DNA of 64,000 nucleotides from an uncultured Spirochaetota bacterium (lineage in GTDB: Bacteria > Spirochaetota > Spirochaetia > SZUA-6 > Fen-1364): positions 1 through 64,000 of the forward strand of contig CAVUXE010000058.1 in assembly GCA_963745235.1 (NCBI GenBank), in the 5' to 3' direction. Under the pieces are notes generated by a model. That model was not told where the DNA came from and did no database searches. It worked only from the letters and a program-made list of their open reading frames with translations. Positions 1-26,086 of the stretch are shown in pieces. The position numbers and the translations under genes were made by a program. Position 1 is the first letter of the stretch. Every line of letters begins with the position of its first letter.

Positions 1-3000
1 TGGACGGGAGTGCGGCTCAAGGGGTGGACTTCACAGGGTGGACGCTGACCAACCTGACGGTAAACAACTCCACGGGTGCCACGGTGACGGTGAGCACCAC
101 GGGGATCACCCTGGGGGGGAACCTTGCGCTGAGCAAGGGAACGCTGGCGATGGCAGCCCTGGGGTTGAACGTAGCGGGGAACATCACGCAAGCGGGCGGT
201 GCAGTCACGTTTACCGGAGCGGGGACTTTGACGCTGGACGGGAATGCAGCAGGGCAGACGGCGGATCTGTCGACCTCGACGCTGATCAACCTGACGGTCA
301 ATAGCGCCTACGCTACGGCTCCCCAGGTGAGCCTGGCGGGAAACCTCACGGTGTCCAACCTGTTGACCATGACGCAGGGAGTTCTTGCCTTGGGCGGCAA
401 CCTCCTGAGGCTCGGCACCAACCTTTCGCTGAGCTCGACAAATGTAACAGGAATTGCCATCGGCACAGGGACCCTGGACGGCTTGACCAACGGGAAGACC
501 ATTACCATCAGCAACGCGAACGCCTCGATTACCCAGTCCACGGGCACGCTGAGTGCGGCTTCGTTGACCGTGAGTGCTGGGGCCTACACCCTTTCCGGGG
601 CGGGGACGGTCACCCTGGGCGCGGGCGGGTTGGTCCAAATCGGAGGAACCATCACAGCCGCCAATGCAGCCATAAGCTCCAGCGGCAGCGTCGATGTGCA
701 GGCCGTGGCCACATTCATCGCAAACACGTCCACTCTAACGATGAGCGGTCCCGGAACAACCATCCATTTTGCGCAGACACCTCTGCACCAGCCCTATGAC
801 CTGACTATCAGCGCCGGGGGGGCCGGAGTAGCCATCGCGACAGAGGCTCTCACGGTTGGGAACAACCTGACGATTTCCGCCGGCGGGCTCTTTAGCACTG
901 CCAACAACAATCTCACCGTGGCAGGGAGCCTGACGGGAGCAGGGGCGCTGACAGCCGCGGCTTCAGAGGCCATCGGCGTTGGTGGCAATTGGGGCGTGAC
1001 GGGCTTCAACGCGGCAAGCAGCACGGTGAGCTTCACGGGGACAGGATCGATTCAGAGCGCCGCAACCTTCTACAACCTGACGATTGCAGCCTCGGCGAAC
1101 GTAACTCTGCAGGCCGGCATCGGGATCAACAACACGCTGAGCGTGAGCGGGACGGGGACCTTGAACGGCGGAGCAGGGTCCTTCACCATCACGATGAACG
1201 GCGCGCAGTGGAACAACGCGGGGACTTTCACTCCCGGAAACGGGACAGTCTCTTTCACCTTGCAGAACGCCGCGCAGCTTTCGATCACAGGAAACAACAG
1301 TTGGTACAACTTCAGCGTCACCGCGGCCAGCGCCGCGGGCAAGACCATCCAGTTCCAGCACCTGATGACCCAGACAATAGTTGCGGGAGGGAGCTTCACG
1401 GTGCTGGGGAGCAGCTCCTCCCTGATCACACTGACAACTGACAGTCCGAATGCAACGTCCAACACGACTCCGCCGCCGACCTTGCTGGGGCAGTGGGTCA
1501 TCACGAATAATGGGGCGCCACCGAATGTCAACAACGCGATCGTTTCGTGGAGCTATGCGACAAACCAGATCGTCCCCGGGGCAAATGCAAATGACGGGGG
1601 CAACAACTACAACTGGATTTTCTCCGTTCCCATCGTGGCCAGCTGGACTCTGGACACGCTCAACAGCGGCCGCATAAACAGAATCCGTGTCCAGGTTCTG
1701 CCAACGATACCCCTCAACAACAGCTTTGGAGGCTTTACCGCGCAGGTAAGTGGATACACCGTTACCGGCTACCAGCAAGTGGTCCCCGGCACGGACGTTT
1801 TCGATATCCTCCTGCAGCAAGGACCGCAGGAAGATACGAACGCCACGCCGACGTGGCAGGTGACCGCAAACACGAGCCTCGGGGTTGCCGGAGGCGCCCT
1901 GGTGGCGCACAACACGGCGGGGACCACGAAGCTCTACATCGCCGCAAGCGGCGCTCGGCCCGTGATCACGTACAGCCTTGCTGCTTTGGGGAGTACCCAG
2001 GCATACGTGCACTTCTCCGAGCCGGTGTATGGCGCCGACAACGGAACCACGTCTATCAGCAATACGAGCATCTCCTACTCGGGAGGGGCCATCACGGTTC
2101 AGCCCGTGGAGACAAGCGGCAGCGCGGCTCACGCCGCCATAGTCACACTGCCGACGCCGTTGGTTGTGAACGATATTCTCTTGGGCCAAAAGTCAATCAG
2201 CGCGGCAACCTTGGCCGGCACTGGCCAGATCTGGAGCAACCAGGTCTATCCAACTACGTTCGACTATCCATCAAACTTCGCTTCGGCCTCGCAGAGTCAC
2301 TATTCGGGCAACCCGGGGGCAGCGGCATATACGAATACGAACCCCGACGGGAACCTTCCTCCCAGCGTGACCGCGGTAGCCCCCTTCAGCGGCAGGGCCA
2401 TGCTCACGCCCAGCTCCGCTCCCGGTCCGACTGCGCCCGCTCACAACATCTCGGACGTCGGGATAGGATTTGTTGTCCCCGTTCTTGCTGAGGACCAGAG
2501 TACCGCTCGTAATCCGACCCTCGGCGGGGTCGGCCTGGTCACAAACTTTGACGGCTCGCAGTGGCTGCCGCCTGACAACACCTTCCTGGAAGCCAGGATA
2601 ATGCCGCCCACGCTGAGTGGGGCCACCGTGACGCTGTACTGGGACATCAACCCTCCGCCCTCGTATGACTTCAACAACCTGTGGATTCCGACGACGGCGA
2701 CAACGATCTCCGCGGGAGCCCCGGGGACCGGCGATCGGGCTCATTTCCCCGGAGATTCCCAGGCGCGCTCGGTATCATCCACGGTCAACGGGGCGCTGCG
2801 AGACTTCACGATCGCTTCCACTAACCCGGCGATCAAAGACGGGGCCCTTTTCCAGTTCATGTTCATCCTGGACGATGGGGCAGGACACAAGCTCCCGTGC
2901 GCCTTCCCCGCTGACCCCGCCAACCCGGCCAATGTCCGGCCGTTTGAGTACATGTTCCATTCCATCATCCGGCAGCGCGGCGGGGTCACCATAACGAACA

Positions 3001-3260
3001 ACGTGATCCGTCCCGACAATGGGCAAATGGCGTACCTGACCTACACGGTGAGCACCGCAGGCCAGGTGACGATCACGGTGTTCGATCTCAGCGGCAGCAT
3101 CGTGAACGTCCTGCAGCGCGGCTCACAGGGGACGGGAACCTATACGACCGCCTGGGACGGCAGGAACCGCGGCGGCCGCGCGGTGGCCAGGGGGATCTAT
3201 TTCATCCGCGTGGTCGGCCCCGGGTTCGACGAGATCCGCAAGGTGCTGGTGGTCAGGTAG
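1..3260 (+). CDS. Large secreted/surface protein, beta-helix-like Gly/Thr/Asn-rich repeats with C-terminal FlgD-Ig-like domain (5' end outside window)
   Basis: Frame is open upstream of the listed start at 24. Repeated xxNLTVN/LTI motifs. C-terminus TAWDGRNRGGRAVARGIYFIRV...RKVLVVR is typical of FlgD_ig domains. Confidence 0.8.
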   Translation, partial: DGSAAQGVDFTGWTLTNLTVNNSTGATVTVSTTGITLGGNLALSKGTLAMAALGLNVAGNITQAGGAVTFTGAGTLTLDGNAAGQTADLSTSTLINLTVNSAYATAPQVSLAGNLTVSNLLTMTQGVLALGGNLLRLGTNLSLSSTNVTGIAIGTGTLDGLTNGKTITISNANASITQSTGTLSAASLTVSAGAYTLSGAGTVTLGAGGLVQIGGTITAANAAISSSGSVDVQAVATFIANTSTLTMSGPGTTIHFAQTPLHQPYDLTISAGGAGVAIATEALTVGNNLTISAGGLFSTANNNLTVAGSLTGAGALTAAASEAIGVGGNWGVTGFNAASSTVSFTGTGSIQSAATFYNLTIAASANVTLQAGIGINNTLSVSGTGTLNGGAGSFTITMNGAQWNNAGTFTPGNGTVSFTLQNAAQLSITGNNSWYNFSVTAASAAGKTIQFQHLMTQTIVAGGSFTVLGSSSSLITLTTDSPNATSNTTPPPTLLGQWVITNNGAPPNVNNAIVSWSYATNQIVPGANANDGGNNYNWIFSVPIVASWTLDTLNSGRINRIRVQVLPTIPLNNSFGGFTAQVSGYTVTGYQQVVPGTDVFDILLQQGPQEDTNATPTWQVTANTSLGVAGGALVAHNTAGTTKLYIAASGARPVITYSLAALGSTQAYVHFSEPVYGADNGTTSISNTSISYSGGAITVQPVETSGSAAHAAIVTLPTPLVVNDILLGQKSISAATLAGTGQIWSNQVYPTTFDYPSNFASASQSHYSGNPGAAAYTNTNPDGNLPPSVTAVAPFSGRAMLTPSSAPGPTAPAHNISDVGIGFVVPVLAEDQSTARNPTLGGVGLVTNFDGSQWLPPDNTFLEARIMPPTLSGATVTLYWDINPPPSYDFNNLWIPTTATTISAGAPGTGDRAHFPGDSQARSVSSTVNGALRDFTIASTNPAIKDGALFQFMFILDDGAGHKLPCAFPADPANPANVRPFEYMFHSIIRQRGGVTITNNVIRPDNGQMAYLTYTVSTAGQVTITVFDLSGSIVNVLQRGSQGTGTYTTAWDGRNRGGRAVARGIYFIRVVGPGFDEIRKVLVVR

Positions 3261-3325
3261 CCCCGGCAGCGGCAGCCCCGCCGGCGCCTTGAACTCTGAA
3301 GGGATTCACGTCAAACTGCGGGGGA

Positions 3326-4681
3326 ATGGATCCCGGCGCGAGGAGAGGTGGGCCGCTGCGGCTGATCATCGGGCATTCCAACATGGATCTCGATTGCCTC
3401 GGTTCAGTAGCGCTGGCGCGCAAGCTTTTCCCCGGCTCCATTGGCGTTCGCAGCCGCATGATCCACCCCGTGGCGCGCAATCTCTACAACCTCTACGGGG
3501 AATACCTCGACCTCGTGAGCATCCAGGAGATCAGCAAGGAAACCGTTGAGCAGCTCGTGGTTGTCGACACCAGGTCCCTTGGCCGCATCAAGGAATATAT
3601 CGTGGAAATGGATCAGCTCCCCTCCCGGGTGGAGGTCTACGATCATCATCCCGCGGATTCATCCGATATTCCCGGCGCGGTCATCCACGAGGGCAGTGTC
3701 GGAGCCAATACGACTCTCCTCGGGATGGAAGCCATGCGGAAGGGCGTTCGCTTGACGCCGGAGGAAGCAACCATAGCCCTCACCGGCCTCTATGCGGACA
3801 CCGGCAGCTTCACCCATGAAAACGTCGCCCTGGTGGATTTCGAAGTGGCGGGCTATCTCGTTTCCCAGGGCGCCTCGATTTCCCTGGTGAAAAGCTTTCT
3901 CCAGACGCTCAAGGACGAGACGCAAATCTCCCTGTTTCACGAGATCCTCAACAGGCTGACCTATCAGACCCTGCATGGCCATCAGATCGTCACGACATAC
4001 ATGGAGATGGAGAAGCAGATCGGGGGGCTTTCCGCCGTGGTGGAGAAGGTCTTCGAGGTCGAGAACCCTGACGCGATTTTTGCAGTGTTCTATTTCCAGA
4101 AGGAACGGGACTCCCTCATCATCGCCCGCAGCCAGCAGCATCGAATCGACCTTGCCCGGATCCTTGCCACCTTCGGAGGGGGAGGACACTCCCAGGCTTC
4201 CTCCGCCCTGCTGAAGAACCAGCCGGGGAGAAAGACCTTTCACGCTCTCCAGGCGTACCTCAAGACGATGCTGGACGAGGCCGCGACGGCGCGCGGGATC
4301 ATGAGAGACAGCGTCAAGGTGGCCAAAGACTCGTGGACCCTGCGGGAGGCCTCGGAGTTCCTGGAGAAGCTGGATCGCACAGGGGCGCCCGTTGTGGACC
4401 GCGCGGGACAGCTCTGCGGGTTTGTCACGCTTCGCGATATCTCCAAGGGCCGCAGCGCGGGCCAGATGGAGGCACCCGTTCGCGCCTTCATGACGCGCAA
4501 GGTGATCAGCGCGGCGCCCTCGACGACCTTCCGGGAGCTCGAGCACATCTTCTTTTCCCACACGATATTCTCTCTTCCCATCGTCGAAGACGGGAAGGTC
4601 ACGGGCCTTGTCACCCGGGCGGACTACTTGAAAGCCCGCATGGGAGAGGAAGGCGGACCGTCCCCAGAGCTCCCCGCGTGA
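3326..4681 (+). CDS. DHH/DHHA1 phosphoesterase with C-terminal CBS pair
   Basis: GHSNMDLDCLGS, VVVDT, YDHH, ADTGSF and GGGGH motifs, followed by two CBS repeats. Confidence 0.85.
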   Translation: MDPGARRGGPLRLIIGHSNMDLDCLGSVALARKLFPGSIGVRSRMIHPVARNLYNLYGEYLDLVSIQEISKETVEQLVVVDTRSLGRIKEYIVEMDQLPSRVEVYDHHPADSSDIPGAVIHEGSVGANTTLLGMEAMRKGVRLTPEEATIALTGLYADTGSFTHENVALVDFEVAGYLVSQGASISLVKSFLQTLKDETQISLFHEILNRLTYQTLHGHQIVTTYMEMEKQIGGLSAVVEKVFEVENPDAIFAVFYFQKERDSLIIARSQQHRIDLARILATFGGGGHSQASSALLKNQPGRKTFHALQAYLKTMLDEAATARGIMRDSVKVAKDSWTLREASEFLEKLDRTGAPVVDRAGQLCGFVTLRDISKGRSAGQMEAPVRAFMTRKVISAAPSTTFRELEHIFFSHTIFSLPIVEDGKVTGLVTRADYLKARMGEEGGPSPELPA

Positions 4682-5559
4682 TACTGAGACCTCCCTCCTC
4701 CGTCCCCGAGATCGTGGCCGACCAGGCATGTCGGCTGGCCGGCGCACCCGTCTGGCACCCGGTTTCGAACCTCCTCTATTGGACAGATGCGCATTCCGCT
4801 TGCCTCTATTCTTACGATCCGGGAGCCGCACGGAGCGTCCTGTCTCCCACGGCGGAGAAAGTGCTCCAGGTGGCCGCCTGTGATGACGGCAGCCTTCTCC
4901 TTTTTACCGCGGACGGGGCGCTCAAGGCTTTGCGCGGCACGAGTATCCTGACTCTCGCGGAACGTCTGCCGTTGGGTCCCGGGGCGCAGATCGACGCGGC
5001 GGCGGCGGATCGTCAGGGCAGGCTGTATTGCGCGGTGAGATCAAAGGGCAGGAAGGGGAGCTTGTACCTTGTCCACTCAGATGGCGCAATTGAGCCGGTG
5101 CCCGGCGGAGCGGGCCGGGTGTGCGGGCTGAGCTTCGATTCAGACGGAGGCCTCCTGTACTGCTGCGACGCGGTGACGCGGGAGATCTCCTGTCTTGCCC
5201 ATGACAGCGCCACGGGCGCTCTTTCCAGCCGTGCAGTGGTTCACCGCGTGCCTGAGTCGCTGGGCGCGCCGCGGGGGATTGCGGCGGATGCCAAGGGCTT
5301 CGTGTGGGTTGCGGTCTGGGGGGGAAGCTGCATCATTCGACTTGCGCCGACCGGCAAGGAGGAGAGGCGCGTCTACTTCACGGCCAGGCTCCTCAGCGGG
5401 GTCACCTTCGGGGGGCCGGATCTCCGGGACCTCTATGTCGTTGCATCCGGCGGGGAGGACCGGAAGGCGAATGGACCGGGGGCGGGAGCGCTTTACAGGC
5501 TGCGCGCCGGCGTGAAGGGCGCGTCGACGGCCCTCGTCCCGGGGCGACTCCTCCCTTGA
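4678..5559 (+). CDS. SMP-30/gluconolactonase/LRE family protein
   Basis: GAPVW...LYWTD and DAKGFVWVAVWGG...TFGGPDLRDLYV motifs. GTG start overlaps the upstream stop (GTGA). Confidence 0.8.
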   Translation: MILRPPSSVPEIVADQACRLAGAPVWHPVSNLLYWTDAHSACLYSYDPGAARSVLSPTAEKVLQVAACDDGSLLLFTADGALKALRGTSILTLAERLPLGPGAQIDAAAADRQGRLYCAVRSKGRKGSLYLVHSDGAIEPVPGGAGRVCGLSFDSDGGLLYCCDAVTREISCLAHDSATGALSSRAVVHRVPESLGAPRGIAADAKGFVWVAVWGGSCIIRLAPTGKEERRVYFTARLLSGVTFGGPDLRDLYVVASGGEDRKANGPGAGALYRLRAGVKGASTALVPGRLLP

Positions 5560-5584
5560 CTCTGAAAGGGGCGGCCGCTATCAT
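5556..5584 (+). promoter_or_regulatory. sigma70-type promoter for the small Zn-ribbon gene
   Basis: TTGACT-17 bp-TATCAT, with GAGGAG RBS downstream before ATG 5616. Confidence 0.6.
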
Positions 5585-5615
5585 GCGGCCACTATCGTTT
5601 CTGTGAGGAGAGCCA

Positions 5616-5846
5616 ATGGCAAAGAGCCATCGTGGAAAGGGATTGCAGGGGCAGGTACGAGGCGGTCGCGGCCTTTGCCCGCTGTGCAAGAGGACGGCGG
5701 TGAAAGTCGTCTATGAGGCGCAGGTGAAGGACAAGACCATCAAAGTGTGCAAGACGTGCAAGGCCGCGCTCAGCCACGGCAAGTACCAGCAGGAGGCAGA
5801 GGCCCTGGTTTCAGCCGCCCCGGCAGCGGCTCCCGCGTCGACGTAA
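5616..5846 (+). CDS. Small basic zinc-ribbon protein (CPLC...CKTC), function unknown
   Basis: 76 aa, strong RBS, own promoter, two CxxC pairs, Lys/Arg-rich. Confidence 0.75.
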   Translation: MAKSHRGKGLQGQVRGGRGLCPLCKRTAVKVVYEAQVKDKTIKVCKTCKAALSHGKYQQEAEALVSAAPAAAPAST

Positions 5847-5962
5847 TCCCCTTCACTGACATACCCAGATCCTCTTCCCGTCCTGACCACGTCACCAAAG
5901 CTCGCGGGCGGGTTTCCCTATCCTGCCTGCTCTGATAGACTTCACTCCAGGAGACATGGGGA

Positions 5963-6379
5963 ATGCCTGAGCCGGTGTTTGTCGCCCTTCTCATTGCGGA
6001 CAGGGTCGTCACGGAGGACAACCAGAAAAAGGGGATCATCGGGACCTTCACGCAGTTCACCGTCCGCCAGGTCCCTGCCGCTCTGCCGCCGTGGTACATC
6101 TACGCCGCGGTGACGAACATTGCCGGCGAGCACGTCTTTTCCCTCAACCTTCTCTTTGACCGCAGTCAGCAGGTGATCTTTTCCGCCGGCGGGAAAGTGT
6201 CCGTGGATGATCCGCGCAGGGTGGTGGAGCTGGTCATCCAGGTGCCCAATGTCGTATTCCCGGAAGAGGGCACGTACAACGTTTCCTTCCATATAGATGC
6301 GGACCTCATCGCAACCCGGATCCTGGACGTCGTGAAAGCTCCCGAGCAGCGGCCCGTCATCCCTGGTCACCCCGGATAA
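5963..6379 (+). CDS. Conserved hypothetical protein (DUF6941-like beta-sandwich)
   Basis: [11 protein letters not shown]...KKGIIGTF N-terminus and FPEEGTY motif. AGGAG RBS upstream. Confidence 0.65.
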
Positions 6380-17383: not shown

Positions 17384-17467
17384 GCGAGAGTGGTGGAATT
17401 TGGCAGACACGCCAGACTTAGGATCTGGTGCCCAAAAGGCTTGAGGGTTCAAATCCCTTCTCTCGCA
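17384..17467 (+). tRNA. tRNA-Leu(TAG)
   Basis: Acceptor GCGAGAG/CTCTCGC, anticodon arm CCAGA-CTTAGGA-TCTGG, long variable arm. Confidence 0.95.
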
Positions 17468-17481
17468 GTGGTGTAGGACAC

Positions 17482-17554
17482 GCGGGAATAGCTCAGTTGG
17501 TAGAGCTCCACCTTGCCAAGGTGGATGTCGCGGGTTCAAGTCCCGTTTCCCGCT
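17482..17554 (+). tRNA. tRNA-Gly(GCC)
   Basis: Acceptor GCGGGAA/TTCCCGC, anticodon arm CCACC-TTGCCAA-GGTGG. Confidence 0.95.
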
Positions 17555-17741
17555 CAAGTCTTTTGGTCGTAAGCAATTAGATTGCGCTGCAGCCGAACAT
17601 GACGTTCGGCGACCAGTGTGGTAGTCTGAGCCCTCCGTTTTCTAACTTCTTTCGCCATAAACAATTGAACAGACTCTTAGAGCTTCCTTTTCACAAGGTG
17701 GAGCTCTCCCGCGAACACTGCACTCCAGGTCTTTCACTGCT

Positions 17742-17967: not shown

Positions 17968-18744
17968 TCATACACTGTGGCTTCCAACGATCCTCGGCAG
18001 GACTTCCTCGGCTTTCCCGAGGATGGTTCGGTCGAAGCTGTCTTCCGACCCTATCAAGGGTTCAAGGTTGATGTAGACAGTCTCTGCTCCAGTGTACCGA
18101 GCCGAACGCATGTAGCCGTTCGCTGGGTACACGGTCCCTGAAGTACCGACGGAGATGAAGAGATCAACTTTCCGAAGGGCCATCTTCACTGCCCACTCAG
18201 CGTCGAGATCAGACCGCTCCCCGAAGAAGACGAGATCGGGTCGAAGCAGGGAGCCGCATTTCGGGCAGACGGGCTTCTTCTCAGCATAGCATTCGGTGTC
18301 GTCGAAGGGCTGGAGATCGCACTCGTAGTTTGAGCACCGTGTCCTGAGAACGCTCCCGTGCAGTTCGACCATGCGGCGGCTTCCCGCCTTCTGGTGAAGA
18401 CCGTCAACGTTCTGCGTGATGAGGAGGAACTCCTGGTCCGTCCGAAGGCTCTTTTCCAGGCGGACCAACGCATGGTGGGCGGCGTTCGGCTCCGCCTTGA
18501 GCGAGGCGGACCGTAGGAGGGCAAAGAACCGCCAAGCCCCCTCGGGGTCATCGTCAAGCCCCTCTCTATGCGCGAACCGCTCGACCTTGGGATCGTTCCA
18601 TAGTCCGTCAGGCCCTCGGAACGGGTTGATGCCTGAGGCGACAGAGACTCCTGCGCCCGTCAGGATAACGATGTTGCGGTAGTGGGCGAAGTTGAGTGCC
18701 TCAGCTTCGTCGAGTCGTTCGACCTCTGTTGTTTCATCGTTCAT
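17968..18744 (-). CDS. cobB: NAD-dependent protein deacylase, Sir2/CobB family
   Basis: LTGAGVSVASGI, TQNVDGLH, ELHGS, Zn-binding Cys, LRPDLVFFGE and GTSGTVYPA motifs. GGAGG RBS. Confidence 0.88.
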   Translation of the reverse strand: MNDETTEVERLDEAEALNFAHYRNIVILTGAGVSVASGINPFRGPDGLWNDPKVERFAHREGLDDDPEGAWRFFALLRSASLKAEPNAAHHALVRLEKSLRTDQEFLLITQNVDGLHQKAGSRRMVELHGSVLRTRCSNYECDLQPFDDTECYAEKKPVCPKCGSLLRPDLVFFGERSDLDAEWAVKMALRKVDLFISVGTSGTVYPANGYMRSARYTGAETVYINLEPLIGSEDSFDRTILGKAEEVLPRIVGSHSV

Positions 18745-19264
18745 ACAGCGCCCTCCTGGTCCGTTCGCGTCAGTAGATGCAACAGGTGAAGTGGAGGAAT
18801 TGGCCAATACGCATCATGTCGAAAACCTGTCGCAACCTGGATCGAGATTTGTTGAGCGTATAGGCGACGTGGTCGGCAAGCAAGTCCTCCGCGATCACGC
18901 CGACATCAAAGGACCTTAGCAGAAAACCCTCGATAGGCCTCGGAAGGGCTGTGCATGTCGCTGGTGAAGAGGATTCTCACCGCTGACAACCCCTGCCTCG
19001 GTTGCGAAGAGTACGGCCAAACCCTCGGGGAAGCGCATAGTGTTTCAGCGTGCTTTCAAGACAAACTGTGTCTTCAATTGCCAGATCCTGCATCCATGAT
19101 ATGCGGGCAAGGTGACAAGCTTGACGACGTTGGTTGGGGCAAGCCATGATATGTTGAAGCTCAGACAGTGAGTCTCTGCTTCCGCGGGGCGACCCTTCTT
19201 GTGGCGCTTCAAGTCGCAACCCGCAGAGTACGGCGTTCGGAAAGCGATCAAGCAGGAGGCTGCT

Positions 19265-19786
19265 ATTTCCTGGATCATGGTCGACATCGAAGCTGACGGC
19301 CCGATTCCTGGGGACTTCTCCATGATCGAGATCGGGGCGGTTGTGGTAGACATCGCCGCGAAGGACATGAGTCGCAGGTTCAGCGCGAACCTCCAACCGA
19401 TCTCCGAGAAGTTCCTTCCTGAAGCACTCGCGATCTCTGGTTACACTCGCGAGCAGACCATGACGTTCGAGCGCCCCGAGAAGGTGATGGCGGATTTTGC
19501 GGGATGGATAGCTCGCGAAGGCGGCAACGGTCCGAGATTCATCTCCGACAACAACGGCTTCGATTGGATGTTCACTTGCTGGTACTTGCACCATTTCCTG
19601 GGAAAAAACCCCTTCGGCCACTCATCCACGAATCTGGGGTCGTTCTACAAGGGGGTGGAGCGGAGCTTCGCGAAAAGCTTCAAGGGTTATCGCCAGACCA
19701 GGCACAACCACAAGGCCGTCGACGACGCCGTGGGGAATGCCGAGGCATTTCTCGCGATCATCAGCAGGTTTGGTGTGAAGACGTAG
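19265..19786 (+). CDS. DEDDh 3'-5' exonuclease family protein
   Basis: VDIEADGP, NGFDW and HKAVDDA motifs. Start is either ATT 19265 after AGGAGG or ATG 19277. Confidence 0.8.
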   Translation: MSWIMVDIEADGPIPGDFSMIEIGAVVVDIAAKDMSRRFSANLQPISEKFLPEALAISGYTREQTMTFERPEKVMADFAGWIAREGGNGPRFISDNNGFDWMFTCWYLHHFLGKNPFGHSSTNLGSFYKGVERSFAKSFKGYRQTRHNHKAVDDAVGNAEAFLAIISRFGVKT

Positions 19787-20154
19787 GTGGCCTCGATGCA
19801 ACCCGAGAAAGAAGCGGTACTCATGTCCTGGAGCGGCGGCAAAGACAGCGCTCTCGCCTTGTACGAGGTCCTGAAGAGCGGGGCTTACCACGTCGCGGCG
19901 GTGCTGACCACTGTGACCGAGGACTACGACCGCATCTCGATGCACGGCGTTCGCAGAGTGCTACTCGAGCGACAGGCGGAGTCGCTCGGGCTCCACCTGG
20001 AGAAGGTGTTGATCCCCAGCAAGGCCTCCAACGAGATTTATGAGCAGAGCTGGGAAAGCGTTCTTGCGAGGTACGGAGAGCAGGGCGTCAAGACGGTTGT
20101 CTTCGGAGACATCTTTCTGGAGGACCTCAGAAGGTATCGAGAGGAAAGGCTCGC
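19787..20154 (+). pseudogene. DUF71/diphthine-ammonia-ligase-like PP-loop ATPase, 5' half (interrupted by transposon)
   Basis: SWSGGKDS PP-loop, SMHGVR and VFGDIFLEDLR motifs. Ends at the element boundary. Confidence 0.85.
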
Positions 20155-20210
20155 TGTCCGCTGCCGCGCTCTGGTTTGAGAAAGTAGGGGAAATTGCCGA
20201 ATTGCTGTAG

Positions 20211-20928
20211 TTGGGGATTCCCGGAGGAAGGACGGGAAATCGGGAACGGTGTACTCTGTCGCGGAGGACCGTCCCCGACCCCCAAACCAACACAGTACTT
20301 ATACTCGACAGTTCTGAGAAAGACTATAGCCCCGCCGAAGTTTGGCGCCGGTGGCGGAGGCCTGCCCCTTCGCTGCGTTGCCCTGCCTGTGGGACTGAGG
20401 GCCAGTTCCATCGTCACGGCAGCTATCACAAGTACCACTTCTTCGAACGGATCCGCGTCGTGCGGGTACGCTGTGGACACTGTCGGCGCACTCACGCGCT
20501 GATCCCCAGCTTCTCGTTGCCCGGACTATCCATCGGCAGCGCGGAGGCCGAGCGCTACCTGGCCGCCCGGGAGGAGGGGGCGAGCCGCGGATGTGCCGCC
20601 GGGGAGCTTCTGGCCCGTGGCATGAGCCAGAGCTATCCCAAACGCTTGGAGCGAATGCTGGTCACGACGGTCACCCGTGGCAAGGCGCTGCTGGCTGCCC
20701 CGGGCAGAGAGCGGCTGCAAGGGCTATGCGTGGGTGCGTTCGGTTGTGGGCGATCTCGATCACCCCCTGGTGGAGCTGAATCGGTTCGGCCTGGCGCATG
20801 GGGTCAACGGAATGTGTTTGTGCCGCGCTTCGATCTTGCTTTTCTCCTCCTCGGTTCAAAGGAGGCGTGTTTCACATAACAAGGGCACTGCCCAGGAGGA
20901 GACTACCGCGGTAGCCTCAAGCCCATGA
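20211..20928 (+). CDS. Transposon orfA, zinc-ribbon (DUF6431-like) protein; frameshift near 20722, start uncertain
   Basis: CPACG...HRHGSY...RVRCGHCRRTHALIP, continuing in ORF 20677-20928. Confidence 0.7.
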
Positions 20929-20951
20929 GAAAGACGGCAAGGAGGCAGTGC

Positions 20952-22326
20952 ATGAATCACGAGGAGCGCGAAGTTCGGGCCAAGGAGATTGCAGCATTTC
21001 GCTACAGCCTGATCGCGGAGCTGGCCAACCCGTACCTCAAGCGCGAGGAGCTACGGGCGCTGATGCGCCAGAAAGCAGGGCGGGAGCATGAGATTCCCTT
21101 CCTGGGCAAGCGCACCTTGACGGAGAGCTGCCTACGCAAGTGGCTGACAGCCTATAAGGCTCGAGGCATGGAGGGCCTGATGCCCAACCCCCGCCGAGAC
21201 AGTGGCAGTTCTCGTGCGCTGAGCCCGCAGGAGACGGCGCTTCTGGTCACCGAGCTTGAGACTCACCCGGAGCTCACCGCGACGGCCGCCTTGAAGAAGT
21301 TGCAGGCCCAAGGCGGCATCCAGTCCCACCCTTCCAGCTCCTCCCTGTCGCGGCTTGTGCGCTCGGCGGGGTTGGATCGCGAGGGACGCCTGCGAGTGCA
21401 CCAGCAGGAACAGACACTGCCCTTCGAGTTCTTTGCCCCCCTGGAATGCGTGCAGGTCGATTGCATGTACACCGTGGAAGTGCCTGACTCCAAGGGCAGG
21501 CTGCGCCAGGCGGTGCTGCTGGCATTCCTGGATGATGCCACCCGAAGGATTCTCTATGCCTGCTTCGGCTTCAGCGAGAATGCACTGGCCTTCGAGTGCG
21601 GCATCAAACACGTGCTGGCCGCCCACGGCAAGATCGGACGCCTATACACAGATAACGGGGCGGGGTTTGTTTCGCTGCAAACACGCCGCATCCTGGACAT
21701 CCTGGGCATCGTGCTGGTGCACTCACGTCCCTACAGGCCCAAGGGACGTGGAAAGATCGAGCGCTTCTTCCGAACCGTACGGCAACAATTTCTCAGCACC
21801 CACTGTGAATCACTGGCCAGCCTCCAGGACCTGGACGCACGGTTTCATACCTGGCTGGAAAGTGAGTACCACCGAAGCCCTCATCGCGGTCTGGGCGGCA
21901 GGACCCCGCTGGAGCTGTGGCTGGAGAAGGCTCATCTGATCATTCCCATCGACCCCACGGTGAACCTCGACGAGCTTGTTCAAGCACGAGGACATCCGCA
22001 AGGTGCACAAGGATTCCACCGTCACCCTCCACGGGGTGCTCTACGAGGTGGACTCCACTCTCATCGGCGAGCACATCCACCTGCGCTACGACGTCTCCAT
22101 TCCTCCCCTGCGTCGCCGAGTCGTGGTCTTGCTTGACGGCAAGCCCCGTGCAGATGCCCGCATCGTGGATACCTACGCCAATAGTCGCGTCCGACGCGCC
22201 TTCAACTCCGACCAGTTGGTTGTGGAAAAGCAACCCAGCCAGTCTCCACAACCATCCACCACACCGGTGAGTGCCTCTTTGGCGGCCTCCCGACTACTCG
22301 ATACCTCCAAGGAGCAGCGTTCATGA
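20952..22326 (+). CDS. DDE integrase/transposase with HTH and Mu-transposase-like C-terminus; frameshift near 21976
   Basis: QVDCM, FLDDATR, YTDNG and RPYRPKGRGKIERFF motifs. C-terminal RKVHKDSTVTLHGVLYEV in the second frame. Confidence 0.9.
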
Positions 22327-23126
22327 ACTGGAAAGAGATGCTCAGCTACTACAGCCTGACTCAGTTGCCCTTCGGCAAGGAGATCCCCACCGAATCCCTG
22401 CAGCTTCTGCCCTCGGTGGAGAACAATCTCGCTGCCGCCCGGCTTCTGGTCGACACGCACGGCATCGGAGTGATGGTCGGCAAATCGGGCACAGGCAAGA
22501 GCTGCCTCTTGCGCCTGCTGGTCTCCCGGCTGCCCGCAGGTCTTTTCAAACCCCTGTATCTCTGCCACACCTCTGTGGGCATCCTGGAGTTCTACACCCA
22601 CCTGTGCGCGCTTTTCGGTCTGTCCTCATCCTGCCGTCGCGCAGTCATGTTCCGCGACATCCAAGCCCACATCCTCTCGATGAACAGTTCGCGCCACTTG
22701 CATCCGGTATTGCTCATCGATGAAGCGCACCTTTTGAGCAATGAGATTCTGGCTGAGATCCGACTGCTGACCAACTTCCACATCGACTCGCTCAACGCCC
22801 TGACGGTGATGCTCTGCGGAGCGGAGACCCTCTCGTTGCGTTTCGGCTTGTCCATGTTGGAAGCCCTGGCCAACTCCATCACTGTGACCATTCCGCTGGA
22901 GGGACTCCCTCCTGAAGAGAGCATCAGTTTCATCGAAGGTCGTCTCAGCGCTTGTGGAGCACGGACGCCTCTGTTTACCAAGAATGCCCTCACCCTCGTT
23001 CATCAGGCATCCGGCGGCATTCTTCGTACCATCGGTACCATCGCCAACGCCGCGCTATTCAAGGCTTTCGTTGCCAAGAGCACTCAGGTGGAAGCCGAGC
23101 ATGTGCAGTCTGTGGTGCAACGATGA
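22323..23126 (+). CDS. ExeA/TnsC/MuB-like AAA+ ATPase of the transposon
   Basis: Walker A GKSGTGKS, Walker B LLIDEAH. ATGA overlap with the transposase stop. Confidence 0.88.
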   Translation: MNWKEMLSYYSLTQLPFGKEIPTESLQLLPSVENNLAAARLLVDTHGIGVMVGKSGTGKSCLLRLLVSRLPAGLFKPLYLCHTSVGILEFYTHLCALFGLSSSCRRAVMFRDIQAHILSMNSSRHLHPVLLIDEAHLLSNEILAEIRLLTNFHIDSLNALTVMLCGAETLSLRFGLSMLEALANSITVTIPLEGLPPEESISFIEGRLSACGARTPLFTKNALTLVHQASGGILRTIGTIANAALFKAFVAKSTQVEAEHVQSVVQR

Positions 23127-23218
23127 GCCTTTTAAAGCGGGAATTGTATCCTGTCAATGCGGCAAAATACGCGCACGGGAACGTGGGAATCCCGCGGACC
23201 AGAGTGCGGCAGCTAACA

Positions 23219-23542
23219 CTCGCCACGGTCGGCATGAGCGGGGTGTTTCCCATCTGGATGAGGGGCACGAAGGAGCTCGCGAAGTCGCTTATCTCGCTCG
23301 GATTCAAGGCGATCACGACCTGCGTCGACACCAACGTGCTTGGGAAGGAGTTTGTTGGCCGAGTCATCGACGAGGAATTCCTGGCGGACCTTCCAGCCTT
23401 CGTCGATCCGTGTGGTGAGAACGGCGAGTACCACTCGTTTGTCTTCGACGGGCCGATCTTCGGCGGGGCGGTACGATTCTCCGTTGGGGAGAAGGTTCTG
23501 CGGGACGAGCGTTTCTATTTCTGCGACTTGGTACCCGAGTAG
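23219..23542 (+). pseudogene. DUF71/diphthine-ammonia-ligase-like ATPase, 3' half
   Basis: LATVGMSGVFPIW...VDPCGENGEYHSFVFDGPIF. Confidence 0.85.
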
Positions 23543-23669
23543 GGCGACCGTTTCCAGTCCGATCAGATCGAATGCTGAGGCGGTGAGCGCCGACTCAGAA
23601 TTGACCCACGGCCGCGAGGAGAGGAGAAGGGGGCGCTGCCCGCTCTGCCTTCCCCATAGAGGGAGCCGA

Positions 23670-23831: not shown

Positions 23832-24023
23832 AGAGAGGCCTCCTGGGAGTAATCCTGGGCTTGTGAATCCGAACGTGACCGTCTCAGCTTCATGGCTGTC
23901 GTCGTCGCGCATGAACGCGAGAAGCTCGGCTCGGGCCATAAGAAAGCTGATCCAGGACCATCGCAAATTGATACTTGCTCAGGCCGCCTTCGCGCATCAA
24001 TAATTCCCCCAGGAGGCCGCACT

Positions 24024-24326
24024 ATGCCAGAAAATCCCTTGAGCACTGCTCTCGAAATTGACCCGAAAGTTGTGGAGCACATGAGATCCACCGACGAGTG
24101 GGTCTTCTCCGACGGAGCCCTTTCCAAGAAGGTGAAGCTGCTCGTGGCGGTGGCTTTCGACGCGGCTCACGGCGCGGTCGGCGGCGTGAGGGGCTTGGCG
24201 CAGCGCGCGATCAGGGAGGGAGCAACGAAGGAGGAGATTGCTGAGGTTCTTCGTGTCGCCTATGTGATGAATGGAGTCGGAGCCATCTACATTGGATCGC
24301 AGGGCCTCAAGGATGTGATTTCATAG
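24024..24326 (+). CDS. Carboxymuconolactone decarboxylase/AhpD-like protein
   Basis: DGALSKKVKLLVAVA...RAIREGATKEEIAEVL. AGGAGG RBS. Confidence 0.82.
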   Translation: MPENPLSTALEIDPKVVEHMRSTDEWVFSDGALSKKVKLLVAVAFDAAHGAVGGVRGLAQRAIREGATKEEIAEVLRVAYVMNGVGAIYIGSQGLKDVIS

Positions 24327-24348: not shown

Positions 24349-25188
24349 ATGAAAGAAAACCAATCAAGCGATACTGCGTTGGGAGCCTCGGCGATCAGGG
24401 CGGTTCATCAACTGCTCGACGAGAAGCCTCCTATTCTCGAAGACCCGATCTCGCCTTTGGTGATCGGCGATCAGGGCGTCCGCGAGATCTTGGAGCATCC
24501 AGAAAGATACAAAACGCTCTCAGCCAGGGCCCTTCGCTCCCATGTCGTGCTTCGAAGCAGATACGCGGAGGACGAACTACGTCTCGCTTCCGAGTCGGGA
24601 ATCACGCAATTCATCAATCTCGGCGCCGGGTATGACACCTTCGCCTTTCGGCAACCGGAGTGGACTCGCGGGCTGAGGATCGTGGAAATGGACCACCCAG
24701 CGACCCAGGCTGCCAAGCGAAACGCGATTGAGAAGATAGGCTTGCAGATCATGCCAGGCGTAGCTCTCATCCCGTTGGATCTCGAGATAGGCGAGCTTTC
24801 GCTTGCCGTTGCAACGCCCTTCCTGGATCCGTCGCTCCCGACGTTCATCGCCTGTCTCGGCGTTCTGGCATACCTGCGAAGGGCAACCGTGGAAGCCGTT
24901 TTCCATTCCGCTGCGAAGATGCCGAAAGGCAGCAGGCTCTTGTTCGCGTTTGCTCCCCCCGAGACGGATTCTCCGTTCAAGAGCTCAGACGCCGCTTCAA
25001 GGGCTGCCGCGAAGGGCGAGCCATGGCATACGAGGCTTGACGTCGACGAATTGAAGCAGAAGCTGATGGCCAGCAGTTTCAGCGTGGTGCGCTTTCTGGA
25101 TCCCGCGCAAGCCGCGGAGAGATACTACAAGGGGCGGCACGACCTTCCTGCGCCGAGCAAGACGCGGCTTTGCCAGGCGTTCGTCTGA
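24349..25188 (+). CDS. Class I SAM-dependent methyltransferase (LCM/TIGR00027-like)
   Basis: VLRSRYAED, NLGAGYDTFAFR, EMDHPATQ and LGVLAYL motifs. Confidence 0.85.
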   Translation: MKENQSSDTALGASAIRAVHQLLDEKPPILEDPISPLVIGDQGVREILEHPERYKTLSARALRSHVVLRSRYAEDELRLASESGITQFINLGAGYDTFAFRQPEWTRGLRIVEMDHPATQAAKRNAIEKIGLQIMPGVALIPLDLEIGELSLAVATPFLDPSLPTFIACLGVLAYLRRATVEAVFHSAAKMPKGSRLLFAFAPPETDSPFKSSDAASRAAAKGEPWHTRLDVDELKQKLMASSFSVVRFLDPAQAAERYYKGRHDLPAPSKTRLCQAFV

Positions 25189-25201
25189 GGGAACTCCAAA
25201 G

Positions 25202-26086
25202 ATGCAAGATGGTCGAGCGAGTCACACAGCCCGGTACATGGCGCTCTTCCGCGCTATCGAGTCTACCAGACGGCCAGGGCGACGCCTGTTTCACGACCCC
25301 CTTGCCCGTCTATTTCTGAGTCCCAAACTGCGATTGGCCGCCGCAGTAGTGGCGGTCCCTCTGATCGGAAACATTATCCCCTGGATTCTGGACTTGTTCT
25401 GGCCAGGGGCACGAACTTCAGCGATTGCCCGAACCCGTTTCATAGATGATCGCCTTCGGCGTGCGCTTCAGGAAGGGTATAACCAGGTCGTCATCCTTGG
25501 CGCAGGATTCGACAGCCGTCCGTACCGCATGGCGGAGCTGGCAAACACAACGGTAATCGAGGTCGATCATCCAGCGACCTCACGCGAAAAGCAAAGAGCC
25601 TTGAGGAGCGGGATTCACGGGCTGCCTTTGAACGTCCAGTTTCTCGAAATCGACTTCAACACCGAAGGCTTGCAAGATGCGATGCGGCGTGTTGCCTTCG
25701 ATCCCCTTGCACCGACGGTCATTGTCTGGGAGGGGGTGACCAACTATCTCGCAGAAGAAGCGGTCGACTCGACGTTCCAATCGCTCAGGGCGATCTTCGC
25801 ACGATGCCTTGTCCTGTTCACCTACATAAACAGGGCAGTCCTTGAGAGTAGTGGGTCGTTCGATGGGACGTCGAGCGTGGAACAGCGGCTGAAAAAAGTC
25901 GGGGAACGATGGACGTTTGGCTTCGACCCAGCGGCTCTGCCTGTCTACCTGGGCGCTCGTGGATATGACCTTCTTGAGGACGTGGGGTCTGTCCAATACA
26001 GGACGGCTTACCTGCCGACCCGTAGACGGCTTCTTCGCGGCTATGAGTTCTACCGAATAGCGGCTGCACAAAGCGGGGAAGCGTGA
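25202..26086 (+). CDS. Class I SAM-dependent methyltransferase (LCM/TIGR00027-like), second copy
   Basis: RTRFIDD, ILGAGFDSRPYR, EVDHPATS and WEGVTNYL motifs. Confidence 0.85.
   Translation: MQDGRASHTARYMALFRAIESTRRPGRRLFHDPLARLFLSPKLRLAAAVVAVPLIGNIIPWILDLFWPGARTSAIARTRFIDDRLRRALQEGYNQVVILGAGFDSRPYRMAELANTTVIEVDHPATSREKQRALRSGIHGLPLNVQFLEIDFNTEGLQDAMRRVAFDPLAPTVIVWEGVTNYLAEEAVDSTFQSLRAIFARCLVLFTYINRAVLESSGSFDGTSSVEQRLKKVGERWTFGFDPAALPVYLGARGYDLLEDVGSVQYRTAYLPTRRRLLRGYEFYRIAAAQSGEA

Follow-up and report, generated by a model that had tools for sequence, protein, structure and literature searches.

A stretch of 64,000 nucleotides from an uncultured Spirochaetota bacterium (assembly GCA_963745235.1, contig CAVUXE010000058.1, positions 1 to 64,000; hereafter the window) carries at positions 20155-23218 a mobile element of 3064 bp that begins with TGT, ends with ACA and holds three genes: orfA, for a putative zinc-ribbon protein, a DDE transposase gene and an AAA+ ATPase gene. 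Judged from its sequence, it is a Tn6049-like insertion sequence (IS) with a "DUF6431 - DDE transposase - AAA+ ATPase" cassette, a widespread and poorly characterised kind. It is a real mobile element, inserted at the window locus and polymorphic in natural populations. We consider it highly probable that a Tn6049-like element, working by the mechanism proposed below, has inserted into a Dph6-like gene with a 5-bp target-site duplication, and that the copy in the window is damaged.

Evidence for a Mobile Element at the Window Locus

The element is bounded by terminal inverted repeats of 21 bp, the two arms of which are identical at 18 of 21 positions, and the pentamer CTCGC stands immediately outside both tips as a 5-bp duplication (all feature coordinates are collected in Table 1). 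The open reading frames (ORFs) on either side are two halves of a single Diphthami_syn_2 (PF01902) domain. When the element and one duplication are removed, a Dph6-like open frame of 228 amino acids results, which aligns without gaps over the junction to an uninterrupted homologue from the same genus (47% identity, E = 3e-73). The insertion has knocked out the Dph6-like gene in this genome. The original prediction, made from the sequence without database searches, had described the TGT...ACA tips, the imperfect 21-bp repeats and the CTCGC duplication at the same coordinates, and had proposed that excision restores the host gene. All of this is borne out, including the junction peptide that it quoted, which the gap-free alignment confirms.

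Other copies define the same boundaries. The window's own genome is a metagenome-assembled genome (MAG) of 104 contigs with 5.87% contamination, and a DNA search of it returned eight matches, among them two full copies (the window copy, C58, and C48), two copies cut by contig ends (C41 and C6), and rearranged fragments on contig C65. C48 is 96% identical to the window copy, and the alignment between them, carried out with 100 bases of flank added, begins exactly at the element's first base and stops exactly at its last, taking in none of the flank; C48 has a 5-bp duplication of its own, ACAGG. C41 and C6 terminate at the same right tip as the window element. A 5-bp duplication was found in seven of the eight copies with both ends examined (C58, C48, L015, L018, L020, L023, and L037), the exception being L022, where the flanking bases at the two ends did not match. 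On contig C65 (loci L005-L008), a 46-base inverted piece lies beside 408 bases that match the window copy without a difference; the contig starts with an 86-base right end of the element.

Contigs of four public metagenome runs were also compared with the window region. A contig of 561 bases from run X5 (300 bases on one side and 261 on the other) joins position 20149 to position 23219, skipping 3069 bases with 5 bases that fit either side, and is an empty site. Run X1 has a contig with the same joint, one side of it being short. Other contigs of these runs end exactly at 20154/20155 and 23218, or continue into unrelated sequence, a pattern that a multicopy element produces. Its distribution is patchy, with occurrences in 3 of 12 other genomes of the same genus and in 2 of 8 genomes of the same order.

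Several motifs recur in the two ends. In the right end of the window element the 11-mer TTGCCGAATTG has an inverted counterpart with one mismatch, which in C41, C6, and the relative L015 is exact; the 11-mer is also found at left-end position +40 in a subfamily whose transposase is 59% identical. The motif GGGATTCCC likewise has an inverted counterpart in the right end, and a 9-mer common to both ends was equalled in 35 of 2000 shuffles, a modest result on its own. The hexamer CGGGAA, a motif picked after inspection of the ends, has all five of its occurrences in the window element within the terminal 130 bp of either end, and three of five in a diverged relative. Because conserved subterminal motifs recur in both ends and in relatives, several protein-binding sites at each end are plausible. 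The original prediction had noted the 11-mer and GGGATTCCC in both ends at the correct positions, and the ends of relatives add to that observation. Its description of the region is supported: a transposable element that carries no cargo, has TG...CA tips, makes 5-bp duplications, and has motifs clustered near its ends.

Gene Content of the Element

The transposase is intact in C48, where it has 457 amino acids. Its ATG at 20952 is preceded by a Shine-Dalgarno sequence, and it matches the domains HTH_32, rve, and rve_3. The DDE residues D170 (21459-61), D234 (21651-53), and E270 (21759-61) are invariant in 20 of 20 sequences. The best curated family is IS481 (NCBIfam NF033577, 161.8 bits), while the IS21 family (NF033546) reaches 43.3 bits against a cut-off of 160. 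In PHROG it matches phrog_310 ("transposase"; 4.5e-40), which is not necessarily the family of Mu A itself. The best match by sequence to a solved structure in the PDB is IstA (4.2e-6), and TnsB chains are found at E = 0.004.

The start of the ATPase gene overlaps the stop of the transposase gene (ATGA, 22323-22326). The codon of the Walker A lysine lies at 22497-22499, and all 18 sequences compared keep the Walker A and B residues unchanged. The protein matches AAA_22 (70.8 bits) and the pepcterm/ExeA-like family TIGR03015 (1.6e-29), and its relatives are named ExeA or GspA by JGI. It also matches phrog_296 ("DNA transposition protein"; 1.7e-13), again not necessarily the family of Mu B itself. 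Fold matches of its structural model include Cdc6/Orc1, the MuB filament 8xvb (1.9e-5, third-best), and TnsC 7m99 (2.3e-4). There were no Pfam matches to TniQ, TniB, or IstB_IS21 (PF01695), with IstB_IS21 and TniQ searched at E ≤ 10. The two PHROG matches and the MuB/TnsC-like ATPase model agree with the earlier proposal of a transposase/ATPase pair of the Mu kind. Its proposal that the layout is other than that of the two-gene IS21 elements is supported as well.

OrfA is intact in C48, with 244 amino acids counted from the first TTG, and has two CxxC pairs. A six-frame scan of the genome matched it to DUF6431 (PF20020) at 26.8 bits, above the cut-off of 26.6; hhalign paired it with a Geobacillus DUF6431 protein (probability 97.3, E = 2.2e-11), and 27 of its 30 Atlas matches were DUF6431 clusters. 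On these profile matches, the orfA product is a DUF6431 protein. In an alignment of 22 OrfA relatives, conservation runs from the ribbon via a helical domain to a C-terminal tail, and the AlphaFold model (predicted local distance difference test, pLDDT, 70.7) has beta hairpins at residues 72-105 followed by helices at 116-201. OrfA matches the ISL3-type family NF033550 weakly (0.0078), the Geobacillus DUF6431 protein matches Zn_ribbon_ISL3 (0.0028), and the first-gene protein of Cupriavidus necator matches HTH_28 (3e-6) and HTH_Tnp_ISL3 (4e-4). OrfA thus looks like a DNA binder made of an ISL3-type zinc ribbon and a helix-turn-helix. A PDB sequence-profile search with OrfA gave nothing useful, and tblastn of orfA against 72,556 plasmid records gave no match at E ≤ 1e-3. 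No fused orfA-transposase forms were seen, the best 150 of 853 profile matches all having at most 270 amino acids. When OrfA (residues 30-244), the transposase, and the ATPase were modelled as a complex, each entered as an alignment, the score was 0.00 (mark, 0.32; controls not folded), which speaks neither for nor against binding.

Distribution of the Cassette

The window element has a small zinc-ribbon ORF followed by the DDE transposase and the AAA ATPase on one strand between inverted repeats, and the same gene order was met repeatedly. It occurs on the plasmids pBB2 of C. necator, pGeo12a of Geobacillus thermodenitrificans, pGt35 of Geobacillus sp. LC300, and pB218 of Metabacillus, as well as on a plasmid of Acidithiobacillus caldus, whose ATPase gene is absent from the PLSDB gene table, and on a Rhodococcus plasmid, where the first gene is annotated as helix-turn-helix only. 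It is also found in MAGs of Spirochaetota and Dehalococcoidia and in a complete genome of the same order, with a transposase 37% identical to that of the window. The three-gene cassette is routinely annotated by NCBI. Relatives number 2015 for the transposase (E ≤ 1e-10, among the 8000 best-matching candidates, which were the ones scored), 714 for the ATPase, and, counted as cluster representatives that match the orfA profile, 853 for OrfA. Contigs of about 3 kb hold many of them, and the family is present in at least five phyla.

A 4.16-kb version of the element was seen in one Spirochaetia MAG (L018 and L020-L023, at about 2199-6359 of each locus). Between its right inverted repeat and the gene for the ExeA-like ATPase lies a fourth gene, AAA_25 (101.7 bits), for a RecA-like ATPase; this version also makes 5-bp duplications. 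Loci L017 and L019 have other sequence in place of the right part from about 5324/5344 onward.

Damage to the Window Copy as Assembled

Two genes of the window copy are split by single extra bases. An extra T near 20727 divides orfA and is absent from C48, the sole other copy that covers the position; an extra G near 21978 divides the transposase gene and is absent from C48, C41, and C6. Neither base lies in a homopolymer or slippery run. Both are also absent from the contigs of all four public runs, which represent other copies because they differ from the window copy at 19-105 other places. Programmed frameshifting at the two breaks was considered and rejected, since the extra bases are missing from the other copies and from all four runs and do not lie in slippery or homopolymer sequence. 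Because its orfA and its transposase gene are frameshifted, the copy in the window is, as assembled, defective and probably inactive, to judge from its reading frames, and C48 is the intact copy. The window copy would therefore need proteins from an intact copy, such as C48, in order to move. The original prediction spoke of three coupled genes. The three genes and their order stand, whereas two of them are not intact in the window, the frameshifts having been overlooked; as to coupling, the transposase and ATPase genes overlap, whereas a gap of 23 nt separates orfA from the transposase gene.

Table 1. Positions in the window of the element, its predicted genes and ends, and the interrupted host gene.
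Feature	Position	Strand	Basis or remark
Host gene, 5′ part, Dph6-like PP-loop ATPase	19787..20154	+	PF01902 positions 5-102
Left 5-bp target-site duplication, CTCGC	20150..20154	.	sequence and empty-site contig (5 bases fit either side)
Left terminal inverted repeat, begins TGT	20155..20175	+	18/21 vs right arm; same start in C48 and L015
Subterminal 11-mer TTGCCGAATTG, left-end position +40	20194..20204	+	also at +40 in the subfamily with 59%-identical transposase
orfA, predicted DUF6431 zinc-ribbon protein	20211..20928	+	frameshifted here (ORFs 20211-20879 and 20677-20928)
GGGATTCCC motif	20214..20222	+	forms left-end cluster together with CGGGAA repeats at ~20233-20246
Predicted DDE transposase: HTH_32, rve, weak Mu-transposase C-terminal domain	20952..22326	+	frameshifted here
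Predicted AAA+ ATPase: AAA_22, ExeA/GspA-like, MuB/TnsC-like fold	22323..23126	+	intact, 267 amino acids
Inverted 11-mer	23155..23165	-	one mismatch here, exact in C41, C6, and L015
Inverted GGGATTCCC, right end	23185..23193	-	sequence
Right terminal inverted repeat, ends ACA	23198..23218	-	18/21 vs left arm; C48 boundary
Right target-site duplication, CTCGC	23219..23223	.	sequence and empty-site contig
Host gene, 3′ part	23224..23542	+	PF01902 positions 85-204

Proposed Mechanism and Alternative Readings

By analogy with better-studied systems, the IS481-like DDE transposase (DD35E) would bind the TGT-tipped inverted repeats together with the subterminal repeats, cleave the 3′ ends, and perform strand transfer with a 5-bp stagger. 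The ExeA/MuB-like ATPase, which appears to be translationally coupled to it, would coat or mark target DNA and hand it to the transposase, as MuB, TnsC, and IstB do. OrfA, with its putative zinc ribbon and helix-turn-helix, would work on the ends or the promoter of the element itself. We think it a serious possibility, falling just short of probable, that OrfA binds conserved subterminal or left-end sites as an end-recognition helper or as an operon repressor (Ner- or InsA-like), and not as a target selector of the TniQ type.

The original prediction had proposed that orfA may encode a target-selection or regulatory factor. Read as a target selector, its TniQ/TnsD-like product would recognise some feature of the target and recruit the AAA+ ATPase in a minimal system of the Tn7/Tn5053 type. 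A small zinc-binding protein, 5-bp duplications, TGT/ACA tips, and a MuB/TnsC-like ATPase in one element fit such a system, and cargo-free Tn7-like elements with a single TniQ exist, for example Tn5469, which is named in a passage of a published survey (PMC11406308). The target sites point in both directions. CAG-containing pentamers recur, with CAG in the duplications ACAGG and GCAGG and in sites for which only the right flank is available (CCAGG, GCAGT, and GCAGA), and GCAG is given for Tn6049 by the paper on pHS87a; yet five of the seven confirmed duplications (CTCGC, CCAAC, CCATG, CGTGT, and GCTGT) contain no CAG and have no common site, and the insertions lie in unrelated places. We make no claim of target bias, because the sites are too few. 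Further points speak against a target selector: the TniQ Pfam model (PF06527) gave no match to OrfA even at E ≤ 10, which is not proof, given that HMMER filters discard many weak matches; no TniQ/TnsD chain was among the PDB fold matches at E ≤ 0.001; orfA lies upstream of the transposase gene; and the transposase is nearer to IS481 than to anything Tn7-like, as its scores with IS481 (161.8 bits) and TnsB chains (E = 0.004) indicate. The analogy with TniQ/TnsD is thus not upheld, and we regard a target selector as distinctly improbable.

A rather unlikely reading, in our view, is that OrfA, in the manner of the Mu protein Ner, solely represses transcription of the transposase operon and has no part in the transpososome. 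The genes of Mu stand in the order ner-A-B, which the order here (small DNA-binding protein, transposase, ATPase) mirrors; the orfA start lies just downstream of the conserved 11-mer at +40 or is overlapped by it, and the first gene of the Rhodococcus relatives is annotated as helix-turn-helix only. The inverted 11-mer is also present in the right end, however, where there is nothing to repress, no promoter was detected in a scan of the element, and the three genes stay together across phyla at 34-38% transposase identity, which fits a core role of orfA better than one as a regulator that the element could do without. Finally, the phage transposition proteins matched by the transposase and the ATPase in PHROG, together with the 5.87% contamination of the MAG, could suggest that the region is an assembly artefact, or what is left of a Mu-like prophage, and not a discrete mobile element. 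We judge the chance of this to be almost negligible: exact 3064-bp boundaries are common to independent copies, each with its own 5-bp duplication, a public run contains the empty site, the host frame is restored on removal, and only three genes lie between the repeats, none of them phage structural.

A number of results weigh against our preferred reading of a Tn6049-like element with an end- or promoter-binding OrfA, in which every mechanistic step is drawn by analogy. The first ORF of Tn6049 and orfA gave nothing in BLASTP and, in hhalign, a probability of 0.2 (E = 0.3), with only the two CxxC pairs lining up, and the Tn6049 ORF has no Pfam match, DUF6431 included. In hmmscan, OrfA itself scores 25.3-25.4 bits with DUF6431, just below the Pfam cut-off of 26.6, and its helix-turn-helix reading leans on weak matches, mostly in relatives. 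The structure prediction for orfA that the original prediction had proposed as a check yielded a model with no fold match at E ≤ 0.001 in PDB or BFVD. The IS481 score of the transposase is below the NCBIfam cut-off of 224 bits, and its Mu-type C-terminal domain is weak (19.1 and 18.7 bits, both under the Pfam cut-off). The top fold match of the ATPase is Cdc6/Orc1, not MuB, and its model is of middling confidence (pLDDT 70.1, residues 153-191 below 50). A promoter/terminator scan of the element returned 0 sites of either kind and no sigma-70-like promoter. Additionally, the two frameshifts may be errors of the assembly consensus, and single-base differences between the window and other copies or contigs are also seen at 23152, 23164, and 23570. 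At position 23570, which is outside the element, contigs of runs X1, X5, and X9 lack one base present in the window; this is either strain variation or a hint of single-base indel errors in the assembly, which bears on how far the frameshifts can be trusted.

A bolder extension of the preferred reading is that a very widespread transposition machine, composed of an IS481-type transposase and a MuB-like ATPase, has in the DUF6431 proteins an obligatory third subunit that has gone unrecognised and that could serve in end recognition in trans or in coupling the ATPase to particular DNA. We hold this to be possible, if doubtful. If true, the 3-kb elements would be a living intermediate on the way from one-gene IS481/IS3 elements to the multi-protein Mu and Tn7 systems.

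Neighborhood of the Insertion

An exonuclease gene of the DEDDh/RNase_T type (19199-19786), labelled "Effector Exonuclease" by PADLOC (PDLC00753, E = 2.2e-34), directly adjoins the interrupted Dph6-like gene. On the opposite strand, just downstream of genes for tRNA-Leu and tRNA-Gly (17384-17555), is a SIR2-family gene (17968-18807). The region 17968-20154 could be a small defence-like islet disabled by the insertion. On the far side of the element, two adjacent paralogous leucine carboxyl methyltransferase (LCM, PF04072) genes occupy 24349-26086, after a CMD-family gene (23892-24326).

Comparison with Known Systems

Tn6049, the one member of the family with a name, was reportedly first described by Van Houdt et al. 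in 2009. On pMOL30 it has a small first ORF with CxxC...CxxC, followed by an "IS481 family transposase" and an AAA ATPase ("gspA"); it has TGT...ACA tips and is cargo-free and multicopy, as is the element of the window. A section in the genome paper on Cupriavidus metallidurans CH34 gives it 3.5 kb and 12 copies (Janssen et al. 2010, PMC2864759), and, according to a 2018 paper (PMC6210171), the module for its transposition "could not be categorized". The transposases are homologous at E = 8e-20 but only 23% identical, and the ATPases at E = 4.2e-17. Tn6049 differs from the window element in an extra ORF of 71 amino acids after the ATPase gene and in its flanks, six identical bases standing beside it on pMOL30 in place of the 5-bp duplication seen here; the paper on pHS87a reports a 4-bp duplication, GCAG.

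The plasmid cassettes, compared by genes alone, have the same three genes in the same order and orientation. Their transposases are 31-34% identical over 88-91% of the length, and the ATPase of the C. necator cassette is 27% identical (E = 3e-26). They are nonetheless distant in sequence, with no tblastn match to orfA among the plasmids. In Clostridium sp. JS66, 15 copies of a DUF6431/DDE/AAA cassette are counted in a section of a 2026 preprint (bioRxiv 10.64898/2026.08.16.744336). An "exeA-int" gene pair is mentioned next to mcr-9 in Tn6230-related regions in a passage of another paper (PMC13049778), and could be what remains of an ATPase/DDE module of this kind. The three-gene layout is thus already in print, in Tn6049 and the JS66 cassette. 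The original prediction had taken orfA for an uncharacterised factor and named a described family with a known orfA role as the finding that would speak against this; described elements do match, whereas no role is described for their first gene. No functional study of DUF6431 or of any cassette member was found in the literature searched.

Elements of the IS481 family are typically single-gene and about 1-1.3 kb long. The window element resembles them in its best NCBIfam match, in the N-terminal helix-turn-helix and rve core of its transposase, and in its TGT...ACA tips, which a passage in the survey cited above names as typical of IS481 (PMC11406308). It differs from them in about 130 extra C-terminal residues with weak Mu-transposase-C similarity, in two further genes, and in its length of 3064 bp. 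With Mu A/B, TnsB-TnsC, and IstA-IstB it shares several putative subterminal sites and a DDE transposase predicted to work with a DNA-binding AAA+ ATPase, a likeness to the Mu, Tn7, and IS21 systems that extends to PHROG and fold similarity; with Mu, Tn7, and Tn5053 it shares the 5-bp duplication and TG/CA tips. Conversely, no TniQ/TnsD-family protein was found in it, its zinc-ribbon gene lies upstream of the transposase gene, and only three genes lie between its repeats, without TnsA or a resolvase, which sets it apart from Tn7 and Tn5053. Furthermore, it differs from Mu, Tn7, and IS21 in being only 3 kb in size. Comprising three proteins in 3 kb, one of them a MuB/TnsC-like ATPase, such a system would offer a compact model of the way in which AAA+ proteins and small DNA-binding factors steer DDE transposases.

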